A stretch of 64,000 bases of DNA from a virus (Duplodnaviria; Caudoviricetes), in the IMG/VR virus record IMGVR_UViG_3300033066_002341, positions 938 to 64,937 of that record; one strand, given 5' to 3'. Each line of letters starts with the position of its first letter. Position 1 is the first letter of the stretch. Shown piece after piece: positions 17,264 to 20,133 of this stretch. The translations under genes were made by a program, and so were the position numbers. The notes under the pieces are model-generated. The model made no database searches. It worked only from the letters and a program-made list of their open reading frames with translations, and was not told the DNA's origin.

Positions 17264-17524
17264 ATGCTTCCTCAAAATAATCCTCAACCTCACCTCGAAA
17301 GATTTGATCGTATCCTCAATACAGCCAATCAACTTTTGACTCAAACGCAACAACAAGCAATGGAAGCAGGAAGAGTAAATTTTTTACTTCCTTTTATCAT
17401 TTCTAAAATCCAGATGAAACAAATTCAAGCTAATTTTGAAGAGCTTACAGCATTGACACAAGCGCTTAAACTTAACTTAGATAATATCAAAGATTCATTA
17501 CCCAAGGAGGCAAACCATGAATGA
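17264..17524 (+). CDS. Hypothetical helical protein
   Basis: Strong RBS (GAGGAGG); 86 aa; overlaps the next gene. Confidence 0.7.
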   Translation: MLPQNNPQPHLERFDRILNTANQLLTQTQQQAMEAGRVNFLLPFIISKIQMKQIQANFEELTALTQALKLNLDNIKDSLPKEANHE

Positions 17525-18188
17525 CAACTTTAATTTAGAATACTCAGCACATTTTCGCGGATTTGATTGGGACAAAGCAAAAGCTTTCTACTATGTTTCC
17601 AGAATAGGAAGCTTTACAAACGCATCCCATTTTTTAAATATTTCTCAACCAGCTTTAAGTCGGCAAATTAGCTCCCTTGAGCAGCGTCTGGGACACCCTT
17701 TGTTTATTCGTCAAAGTCGTGGACTAGCGCTTACCCGAAAAGGCGAAGAACTTCAGCGCATTATCAAGACGACCTTTGAGCAAATAAAAGAATTCACGGA
17801 TAAAGCCAAAAAGACAGAACGAGGTAAGAAACGTATCATTCGCATAGGAATCAATAAAGGAATTGTTTTTATGGTGATAAAGGCATTGGAATCTTATCAA
17901 GAATCCCATCCTTATCTCACCTTTGAACTGGCGGAAGATTTATCGTTAAAAGAAATGGTTGAGCTTGATCTCGATATCGCTGTTTGTCCTTTTCAGACAA
18001 ACAAAGAAAGACTTGAGCAAAGGCCATTTTTAACCATTGATAAAAAACTTTTATTTTCTAAAAATCTTATCCTTTCTCATCAGAAAAAAGAAACTATTGA
18101 TTTATTCTTTGTAACGCCCGCTCATCTGAAGGATGATGAAGAAATCGAGGGGATTTACCAAACATTGCTTTCTGACGTTACGAAGTAA
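17517..18188 (+). CDS. LysR-family regulator with shortened effector-binding domain
   Basis: DWDKAKAFYYVSRIGSFTNASHFLNISQPALSRQISSLEQRLGHPLFIRQSRGLALTRKGE; only 223 aa versus about 300 aa typical. Confidence 0.85.
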   Translation: MNDNFNLEYSAHFRGFDWDKAKAFYYVSRIGSFTNASHFLNISQPALSRQISSLEQRLGHPLFIRQSRGLALTRKGEELQRIIKTTFEQIKEFTDKAKKTERGKKRIIRIGINKGIVFMVIKALESYQESHPYLTFELAEDLSLKEMVELDLDIAVCPFQTNKERLEQRPFLTIDKKLLFSKNLILSHQKKETIDLFFVTPAHLKDDEEIEGIYQTLLSDVTK

Positions 18189-18190
18189 TC

Positions 18191-18550
18191 ATGACCGCTA
18201 TTGACCAAAAGATTGCAGAGGCTCAAGCGGAATGGGATACGGCAACGAATGCCTACAGCCGTTATCCTGGCACAGAAGAATGGCAAACCTTTTTGGATGC
18301 TAAGAAAAAAGTTCATATTTTAAAGGGTTTGCTCAAAGAAGACAAAACCCCACCTATTGCTAGCAGGCAGAAAGAAACAACAAGTGCCGAAAAAGTCTTA
18401 GCTTTTTTAAAGACTACTGCTGAAGCGACATATTCCGATATCATGATACACTGCAATCTCAGCAAAGATCAGGTCAGGCATGCCTTATTAAAACTTCAAA
18501 AAGATGAGACGGTAGAAAAGATTAAAACAGGAGTTTATAAGATAAGTTAG
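18191..18550 (+). CDS. Protein with C-terminal winged HTH
   Basis: EKVLAFLK...TYSDIMIHCNLSKDQVRHALLKLQKDETVEKIKTGVY. Confidence 0.7.
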   Translation: MTAIDQKIAEAQAEWDTATNAYSRYPGTEEWQTFLDAKKKVHILKGLLKEDKTPPIASRQKETTSAEKVLAFLKTTAEATYSDIMIHCNLSKDQVRHALLKLQKDETVEKIKTGVYKIS

Positions 18551-18700: not shown

Positions 18701-18739
18701 AAAAAAGGAGCTTAGTCTCGGGGCAAAGCTCCTTTTTTT
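18701..18739. terminator. Bidirectional intrinsic terminator
   Basis: AAAAAAGGAGCTT-loop-AAGCTCCTTTTTT between convergent genes. Confidence 0.8.
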
Positions 18740-19289
18740 ATATTTCTATCCAATAATACTGATGTATTCCTAGGCTATAAACAGCTACTTTGCCTTCAGT
18801 GGTAAGCATATCAAGAATATTTTTACAGTATTGTGCGACATTTGAATATACTCTGTCTTCATGGTCTTGTATGAAAGATTGAAAACCAAAGTATTCCACA
18901 ACTTCACTTACGGAAACGACCCCTATTGTGGTTTGTAAAAAACCTTCAACTTTTTCTTTTGAGATAATATTTTTATAATTTGCAATATATGTCTGATTTT
19001 CTTTTTCGATTAATCCATCCTGTATCAGATTTTCAAGAATATTATTAATGAAAGATGGTGATATTGGAATGCTTTCTATTTCTAGCTTAACAATTTTTGT
19101 AGGATTCTCTTTTATAAGGGCTAGCAAACGATCATAGACATGTTTTTTAGTTACTAAAACCTTATTGCCTACTTTATAGGCTAATTTAAGATTACAAGCC
19201 CTGTCTATCATCTCTTGAGGGATATCTTTAATTTGATTCGAAGATAGGCTGACCTTTCCTTTTTCTAAAGCAGTCAACAAGGATTGCAT
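18738..19289 (-). CDS. Phage hypothetical protein, 5' end interrupted by the mini-transposon
   Basis: The start ATG lies inside the duplicated target CATATTGT; 14 further in-frame codons with an RBS lie at 20024-20065. Confidence 0.7.
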   Translation of the reverse strand: MQSLLTALEKGKVSLSSNQIKDIPQEMIDRACNLKLAYKVGNKVLVTKKHVYDRLLALIKENPTKIVKLEIESIPISPSFINNILENLIQDGLIEKENQTYIANYKNIISKEKVEGFLQTTIGVVSVSEVVEYFGFQSFIQDHEDRVYSNVAQYCKNILDMLTTEGKVAVYSLGIHQYYWIEI

Positions 19290-19324
19290 ATTGTAGTAGT
19301 ATCTCAGTTTGAAAAATAGATAGA

Positions 19325-19353
19325 TTGACGCAATAAATCCTATCGTTTAAATT
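19325..19353 (+). promoter_or_regulatory. Sigma70-type promoter inside the mini-transposon
   Basis: TTGACG-N17-TAAATT just inside the left IR. Confidence 0.55.
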
Positions 19354-19359
19354 GATAAT

Positions 19360-19593
19360 GTGAGTCATCAAAATAAAGATAGGATTATGAGTGTAAGTAT
19401 AGGTGGAATTGATTTATTTAGTCAAGGATTAAATAATGAATATCGTATTATAGTTTTGGAAAAAATTATAGATACTCTTCTCAAGGAAACATCTATAACA
19501 CAAGAAGAAATAGATTCAATTAAGAAAAAAGCTCTTTCTGATCTTCAGACAAAATACCCTAAAGCGGGAATTACAGAGGTCAGAAAAAAATGA
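19360..19593 (+). CDS. Small soluble passenger protein
   Basis: 77-aa ORF (possibly starting at Met10) with ATGA overlap into the next gene. Confidence 0.7.
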   Translation: MSHQNKDRIMSVSIGGIDLFSQGLNNEYRIIVLEKIIDTLLKETSITQEEIDSIKKKALSDLQTKYPKAGITEVRKK

Positions 19594-19985
19594 GTGCTAA
19601 CACAAATTCTGGAGAATCTATCTTACAAGCCACAATAGATCATAAGGATTATATTATGATACATGAAGCTCAGATAACCCATATTAAAAGCTTATTAGAA
19701 AGAGCAAGTAAACTTGAACAACCTAGACTTAAAAGCAGTTTTCCAAAAATATTGACTTCAACAGGAATATTTCTGCTAGGATTCGGGATCACAAATTTAT
19801 TAGGTATGTGGTTAGGGTTAATAGAATCTAAAATAAATTATTCTACAATAATTTTAGGTTTCTTTGTTCTTTTGGGGGGATACATTGTGCTTGCAGAATA
19901 CTTATATGAGGAAAATAAAGAGAAAAATTATAAAAGCTATACAGACGAAGTATCAAAAATTATTGCTCATTTAATAAACAATTAA
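19590..19985 (+). CDS. Two-TM membrane passenger protein
   Basis: Hydrophobic segments ILTSTGIFLLGFGITNLLGMWLGL and YSTIILGFFVLLGGYIVLAEYL. Confidence 0.75.
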   Translation: MSANTNSGESILQATIDHKDYIMIHEAQITHIKSLLERASKLEQPRLKSSFPKILTSTGIFLLGFGITNLLGMWLGLIESKINYSTIILGFFVLLGGYIVLAEYLYEENKEKNYKSYTDEVSKIIAHLINN

Positions 19986-20133
19986 CCAATGCTCCCTATT
20001 TTTCAAACTGAGACACTACCCATATTGTCTTCTTCTATGTTGTGAAGTATATTTTGTATATTCATCGCATGTTTCCTTTCGTATGATGCGGTGCTAAGAA
20101 AATAGCGGGAACCCACTTCTCGCTATTTCGCTT

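Follow-up and report, generated by a model that had tools for sequence, protein, structure and literature searches.

A probable IS1-like mobile insertion cassette with an orphan gene pair in a winged-helix gene of a temperate phage

In this study, we analysed a 64,000-nt stretch (hereafter the window) of the IMG/VR virus record IMGVR_UViG_3300033066_002341 (Caudoviricetes; 64,937 bp, complete according to CheckV) and identified within it a 726-bp element, at 19295-20020, which is very probably a mobile insertion cassette (MIC) derived from a widespread family of elements resembling the insertion sequence (IS) IS1. We assigned the element to this kind, as a non-autonomous derivative, because it has passenger genes between IS-related inverted repeats and no transposase, which matches the published definition. 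An earlier reading made from the letters of the DNA (hereafter the sequence-only reading) had proposed an undescribed system; this was overstated, since a transposase-less passenger cassette between IS ends is a MIC and has been described (PMC4337579).

The element is bounded by two 25-nt terminal inverted repeats (TIRs), of which the left one (IRL, 19295-19319, plus strand) is AGTAGTATCTCAGTTTGAAAAATAG and the right one (IRR, 19996-20020, minus strand) reads GGTAGTGTCTCAGTTTGAAAAATAG as the reverse complement; they agree at 23 of 25 positions. Outside the repeats lie two exact copies of an 8-bp target-site duplication (TSD), CATATTGT, at 19287-19294 and 20021-20028. A 24-mer of the TIR occurs twice in the window, with 0.00 occurrences expected from 100 shuffles. 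The repeats, the 726-bp length and the exact duplication had all been proposed before and were confirmed here. The previously given end coordinate, 20065, stands only as the limit of a stranded 5' gene fragment that it takes in, and the element itself ends at 20020. The GC content is 29.3% in the element and 40.3% in the window, and the element falls in the most AT-rich 2% of the latter. Inside it are only two open reading frames (ORFs), of 68/77 and 131 aa. A six-frame search with a profile of 26 family transposases (see below) was silent in the element and across the whole 64-kb record, in agreement with the previous statement that no transposase is carried.

The insertion interrupts a phage gene of 197 codons, which is split between codons 14 and 15. 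The first 14 codons, with their own ribosome-binding site (RBS), are stranded at 20065-20024 on the minus strand (MNIQNILHNIEEDN) and now run into IRR, reaching a stop after 20 aa. The rest of the gene forms a 183-aa ORF (19289-18738, minus strand) that encodes a tandem winged-helix protein (F-93 WHD, Mnd1 HTH). This remnant retains a start codon because the TSD includes the ATG of codon 15 (19289-19287, minus strand, within the left copy). When the element and one TSD copy were deleted in silico, a 197-aa ORF with a single stop was restored, as the sequence-only reading had predicted. The uninterrupted homologues that should then exist were found in the protein database, namely P0018 (83% identity) and P0016 (86% identity). 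The N-terminus of P0018, MNIQNILHNIEEDNMQSLL, has the same 14 residues as the stranded fragment, joined to the 183-aa ORF, and that of P0016, MDIQNILHNIEEDNMQSLL, matches the predicted junction save one residue. Thus, the uninterrupted gene is present in related phages, with the junction as predicted. At the DNA level, the empty site is predicted as a single CATATTGT inside GAAGAAGACAATATGCAATCC. A related-locus search among IMG/VR viral contigs returned no relatives of the 197-aa gene or of the two-transmembrane (two-TM) protein described below. Since the TSD is perfect and the element is absent from phages that are 83-86% identical at the 197-aa gene, the sequences point to a fairly recent insertion. 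Another database protein, P0017 (183 aa, 83% identical to window 18738-19289, on a 7,251-bp contig), begins at Met15; it could represent a second occupied site, or merely a gene-calling choice.

Other copies of the inverted repeat, which a mobile element would be expected to have, were found when the outer 18-20 nt of the terminus were scanned: at least 120 metagenome contigs and at least 119 viral contigs contain them. By pairing ends among the matches listed, we obtained 56 complete elements, each flanked by an 8-bp duplication (exact in 52, one mismatch in four), and the sizes, cargo and end statistics reported here refer to these matches. Element sizes are continuous from 148 bp to 4,049 bp, and both members of the size of MITEs (miniature inverted-repeat transposable elements; 148-450 bp) and solo family ends are common in viral contigs. 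With the inner 18-mer of the TIR, a search of one genome per prokaryote species gave 22 matches, and the whole 25-nt right end GGTAGTGTCTCAGTTTGAAAAATAG was present in six of these genomes spanning three phyla (two Terriglobia, Latescibacterota, two Alphaproteobacteria metagenome-assembled genomes and Methylocystis). The inner 18-mer had no match in IMG/VR, the whole element had none in INPHARED phages, and a literature search found neither the TIR sequence nor the name ISMhu11.

The cognate transposase was found between the same ends in autonomous relatives, being present in full length (281-346 aa, single ORF, 49-83% pairwise identity) in 26 of the 56 elements, the smallest of which measure 1.32-1.37 kb (L165 and L231). 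IRR is identical at 25 of 25 positions to the ends of transposase-bearing elements, including L020 and L022. The best match of these transposases is NCBIfam IS1 (NF033558, E 1e-16 to 1e-20), at 59-73 bits versus a curated cut-off of 100; Pfam DDE_Tnp_IS1 was matched weakly (27-29 bits versus a cut-off of 24) and in the C-terminal part only. In ISfinder, the IS1 family is characterised by GGnnnTG ends and a target duplication of 8-9 bp. IRR starts with GGTAGTG, and GG stands at the start of all 148 viral ends among the matches listed. Based on the GGnnnTG-type ends, the 8-bp duplication and IS1 as the best transposase match, the terminus family is classified as a divergent IS1-like lineage. Gene-carrying members without a transposase recur in it, as the sequence-only reading had supposed for elements of this type: L122 (724 bp) and L102 (771 bp), both with RibD_C genes, as well as L059, L215, L158 and L255. 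It is inferred from these relationships that the window element was mobilised in trans by the family transposase. As autonomous members also occur in low-GC viral contigs, such as L232 (34% GC), it is plausible that a compatible transposase exists in a low-GC setting; none of the 18 low-GC loci with family ends is related to this phage.

Two further observations concern unusual arrangements of family ends. One 2,707-bp element is present on three contigs (L129, L208 and L240) with identical flanks that lack a matching 8-bp duplication (GACGCTCT versus CTACGGGG), a pattern that may reflect a rearrangement involving two copies or else a deletion next to the element once it had inserted. In L101, two ends stand nearly back to back and face outward (1323-1370), reflecting either abutting elements or an insertion beside the end of another.

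With regard to internal layout, TTGAC was observed 20-60 nt from the outer end at 14 of 26 transposase-distal ends, versus 1 of 26 proximal ends, and a full -35/-10 arrangement at 8 of 26 versus 0 of 26; the first ORF of the family begins about +55 to +100 from the distal end. The left end of the window element corresponds to this distal end. Counted from the outer end, its TTGACG -35 starts at +31, which is also the case in L114 and L166, and 6 nt separate the -10 from the GTG that opens the 77-aa ORF, a geometry also seen in L232, L150 and L245. The promoter-like sequence TTGACG-N17-TAAATT (19325-19353, plus strand) had been noted correctly before; its previous attribution to the cargo did not hold, and because the position is conserved in the family, this predicted promoter is assigned to the family backbone. 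Two minus-strand promoter-like sites were also noticed in the cassette, TTGACT-18-TATACT at 19396-19425 (10/12) and TTGATA-18-TATAAT at 19927-19956 (11/12), both being consensus matches alone; the former is directed out through the left end at the 183-aa remnant, whose transcription it could maintain.

In about 17 elements, the first gene encodes a conserved small basic protein of 72-90 aa (MAKKPKRPRDxNQLAK...GGLKGGKARA...RW), for example at 7210-7452 in L150 and at 3544-3807 in L232, both on the minus strand. It is also present in the transposase-less L158, L215, L224 and L255, has no NCBIfam match, and may serve the element as a regulator or DNA-binding factor. At least eight elements (L022, L035, L088, L144, L239, L247, L256 and L261) share a conserved leader, CCTATATGCTTAGCGGAAAGCATAGGAG, about 55-90 nt inside the transposase-distal end; it consists of a short hairpin (TATGCTT/AAGCATA) followed by a GGAG RBS and directly precedes first ORFs that are wholly different between elements. 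It resembles a constant expression platform serving a first cargo slot whose content can be exchanged. Larger family elements (up to 4 kb) have two cargo slots.

The window cargo consists of a small, predicted soluble helical protein (passenger 1; 19360-19593, plus strand), which has 77 aa if started at the GTG at 19360 or 68 aa if started at the ATG at 19388, as in the database gene call, and a predicted two-TM inner-membrane protein of 131 aa (passenger 2; 19590-19985, plus strand), whose start overlaps passenger 1 in an ATGA. Downstream of the element, at 20100-20128, is a hairpin with T tracts on both sides (the stem has 12 pairs on the plus strand, and the minus-strand match is shorter), which probably terminates transcription of the cassette on the plus strand and of the upstream phage gene on the minus strand.

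A search of 1.84 billion cluster representatives revealed six relatives of the 131-aa protein, all metagenomic, with 28-47% identity. They have in common a cytoplasmic helix (I-x-H-I-x-S-L-L-x-R-A-x-x-L-E-x-P), a pair of TM helices and, at the C-terminus, a helix with Y-K-S-x-T-x-E. Because the six relatives keep this architecture and invariant residues, the two-TM gene is considered real and under selection somewhere, and the protein to be a genuine gene family. Its AlphaFold model (predicted local distance difference test, pLDDT, 70) consists of a helix and then a TM hairpin, and by the positive-inside rule the N-terminal helix and both termini are predicted to be cytoplasmic. The model of the 68-aa protein has two helices (pLDDT 68), and in a word-indexed protein database search the 68/77-aa protein found itself only. 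We also considered the 77-aa ORF as a homologue of the family's small basic protein, which occupies the same position; phmmer gave E above 2, and the relationship was rejected at that sensitivity. For both passengers, ESM Atlas returned merely unnamed clusters below 0.9, and VIA returned generic helical hairpins with Z below 10, in the noise range for helical models. A BFVD row annotated as a SMODS/SLOG-associated 2TM effector (E 0.18) was not significant, and there was no SLATT Pfam match. Other weak BFVD fold neighbours are uncharacterised siphovirus membrane proteins. In a PDB sequence profile search, Rip1 was borderline (E 0.026, 17.5 bits, over one soluble/cytoplasmic helix), which is near noise and serves as a lead only.

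The cargo pair of the window was not seen elsewhere in the family sample. Relatives carry between the same ends genes that are typical conflict and accessory cargo. Five elements encode HTH-XRE plus ImmA/IrrE proteins, matching PADLOC RmrA of RosmerTA (E 2.5e-131 in L166), and further PADLOC matches comprise a Fic protein (SoFic, 3.8e-45), an AAA_21/AAA_15 ATPase (HEC-04, 6.6e-53) and N6/N4 methylases (MTase_II, 4.4e-67), one of them fused to Mrr and L255 being among the carriers. According to Pfam, two elements encode STAND NTPases (nSTAND1), L215 an antitoxin (SocA_Panacea) and five elements P63C-domain proteins (P63C). Other cargo includes an SDH protease, a ParA-like ATPase, RibD_C reductases and an alpha/beta-hydrolase.

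The phage is temperate, as it encodes an integrase, and the disrupted gene sits in its integrase/regulator region. Its TerL is 30-41% identical to the TerLs of Roseobacter, Paracoccus and Pelagibacter phages, and the terminus family is common in Alphaproteobacteria; an alphaproteobacterial host is loosely indicated. In the same neighbourhood, a short LysR-type regulator of 223 aa (17517-18188, plus strand), with a strong HTH_1 match, a partial substrate-binding domain and a match to phrog_3736 at 1e-31, adjoins a second winged-helix gene (18191-18550).

The following history would account for the observed arrangement. A deletion-type derivative of an IS1-like transporter IS (tIS) would have kept both 25-nt ends and the distal promoter and lost the transposase. 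An autonomous copy in the host would then have provided the family transposase in trans, and this enzyme would have cut and pasted the 726-bp unit into phage DNA, producing the CATATTGT duplication and splitting the winged-helix gene between codons 14 and 15. Now, transcription from the backbone promoter would cover both cassette genes as an operon, run antisense to the broken gene and end at the hairpin at 20100-20128, to give a cytoplasmic helical 68/77-aa protein translationally coupled to the 131-aa two-TM protein. Later, the left end would have gained two G-to-A changes that crippled the copy. As to the role of the cargo, we tentatively suggest a prophage-expressed conflict module, a possibility in which we place less than even confidence: the membrane protein may act as effector, with the small protein as partner or regulator, in superinfection exclusion, abortive infection or a toxin-antitoxin-like pair. 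This suggestion was made because of the defence cargo of relatives between the same ends and the moron-like set-up in a temperate phage. Cargo with no role at all (see below) is given slightly lower odds, and other functions share the remainder. A wider proposal sees in the orphan pair a new anti-phage or superinfection-exclusion system that acts at the membrane and was acquired, ready for expression, with a transposase-less IS1-like cassette, and in the family cargo slot a discovery platform for unknown conflict systems, with phages as regular carriers; it is speculative, and we would not expect it to hold in full.

Several observations weigh against this picture. The defence or toxin-antitoxin role favoured by the sequence-only reading received no direct support: neither passenger matched PADLOC, Pfam, PHROGs or NCBIfam at the thresholds used, Foldseek found no match in PDB or BFVD at E 0.001 or better, and what speaks for the role is the defence cargo of relatives. 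That cargo includes non-defence genes (RibD_C, alpha/beta-hydrolase and ParA-like); therefore, the association is weak evidence of passenger function. The 68/77-aa ORF could be a non-functional ORF in DNA of 29% GC. The promoter match (9/12) is not above chance on its own, the AT-rich region having 7 such sites versus 8.6 expected, and the empty site, although it exists, is observed at the protein level only. Mobility at present is doubtful as well. IRL starts with AGTAGTA, with A instead of the consensus G at positions 1 and 7, a variant confined to the window copy, whereas the right end is a perfect consensus. Among the matches listed, position 1 is G in 148 of 148 viral ends, a count obtained with a search pattern that left this position free, and position 7 is G in 279 of 282 ends. 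As both changes are G-to-A and lie in very AT-rich DNA, we infer that they represent decay after insertion, and the present copy is probably immobile or crippled. The transposase profile detected no autonomous partner in any of the six frames of the phage record.

Some of these points are shared by an explanation that we regard as rather unlikely, in which the element is a dead hitch-hiker, that is, a decayed transposon remnant whose ORFs have no role and which persists owing to recent insertion or to the dispensability of the disrupted gene. The two mutated, near-invariant positions of IRL, the small ORF without homologue, the lack of a functional match for either ORF and the location in the top 2% of the window by AT content, in which ORFs readily arise by chance, are all consistent with it, and IS and MITEs are normally purged from phages (PMC11602168). 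On the other hand, architecture is conserved and some residues are invariant among the six relatives of the 131-aa ORF (28-47% identity), neither ORF is broken, the two are coupled by ATGA behind a promoter at a conserved position, and the perfect target duplication points to recent insertion. An altogether different origin, in which two solo ends or MITEs inserted separately around resident phage genes, draws on the abundance of MITE-size members and solo ends in viral contigs, yet is scarcely credible: a single 8-bp duplication brackets the whole 726 bp, and excision of exactly this unit restores the 197-aa gene found intact in relatives, whereas separate insertions would give two different duplications and no restoration of the reading frame. 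In practice, it was refuted by the 197-aa homologues and the in silico excision.

The cargo might also be a lysis-timing or membrane-remodelling accessory of the phage's own cycle, such as a protein of the holin/antiholin type or another small membrane protein of phages. A small protein with two TM helices, charges on its cytoplasmic tails and a small partner adjacent would suit such a function, as would the weak fold similarity to siphovirus membrane proteins in BFVD. However, class II holins are unlike passenger 2, which has a long (~55-aa) structured N-terminal cytoplasmic segment. In addition, the cassette is in the integrase/regulatory region, antisense to its neighbours and behind its own promoter, which is moron-like and not typical of a lysis cassette, and there is no PHROG match; we consider this alternative improbable. 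The element is still best described as a MIC of IS1-like origin, and a conflict function of its cargo remains a tentative suggestion.

Transposable elements are thought to be rare in phages through purging (PMC11602168), and here a compact cassette appears to have supplied a temperate phage, in a single step, with a two-gene operon and its promoter. At least 119 viral contigs contain the same termini, and the route they suggest to phage accessory (moron-like) genes is transposition and not illegitimate recombination. The MIC concept would thereby be extended to an IS1-like family that is not listed among cargo-carrying IS in the sources consulted. In view of the defence cargo of relatives, the unknown pair is a reasonable candidate for new conflict functions, and one that would be cheap to test. 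As an instance, the element is modest, its kind being known and the function of its cargo putative.

Among known proteins, the 131-aa protein may be compared with Rip1 (ring interacting pore 1; PDB 9oox), a prophage-encoded pore-forming anti-phage protein (PMC13434031). Both are small and prophage-borne, and membrane activity would be a common feature, although for the 131-aa protein this is putative; the profile match is weak (E 0.026) and covers a single helix, and Foldseek and VIA gave no structural support for the likeness. The membrane-active part of Rip1 is an N-terminal amphipathic helix, whereas the 131-aa protein has a C-terminal two-TM hairpin; moreover, Rip1 acts alone, without a small partner such as the one encoded here.

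Among mobile elements, viral MITEs (vMITEs) are likewise non-autonomous and phage-resident, with inverted-repeat ends and a presumably host-derived origin. They are defined as non-coding and only 0.01% of viral sequences contain them, and the same source describes IS as 'found rarely in phages' (PMC11602168). In contrast, the window element is coding (two genes) and lies inside a gene, and its family is present in at least 119 IMG/VR contigs. With IS1 and tIS elements it shares the GGnnnTG-type ends, the 8-bp duplication, IS1 as the best match of the DDE transposase in autonomous relatives, and passengers inside a single pair of IS ends. It differs from IS1 in that the family transposase is a single ORF of 281-346 aa scoring 59-73 bits, under the cut-off of 100, and in that the window copy has no transposase, and from both in the family's element size of up to 4 kb, its two cargo slots and its conserved small basic protein. 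TnCentral lists tIS for IS1595 and IS66 only, and the family described here is not among them.

The closest counterparts are the MICs, which comprise passenger genes between IS-related inverted repeats, lack a transposase and can be activated by a cognate one, as exemplified by MIC231 of Bacillus cereus and the TnXax1-derived MICs of Xanthomonas (PMC4337579). The window element resembles them in its passengers between IS-type inverted repeats, the lack of a transposase, the target duplication and the expected mobilisation in trans. However, its ends are IS1-like with an 8-bp duplication, whereas theirs are of the IS231/IS4 or Tn3 type (5 bp); in addition, it is located in a phage, its cargo is an orphan gene pair and a backbone promoter inside the end is predicted to drive this cargo. 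The MIC kind is thus already known; new here are a form with no transposase, its orphan cargo and its low-GC setting in a phage.

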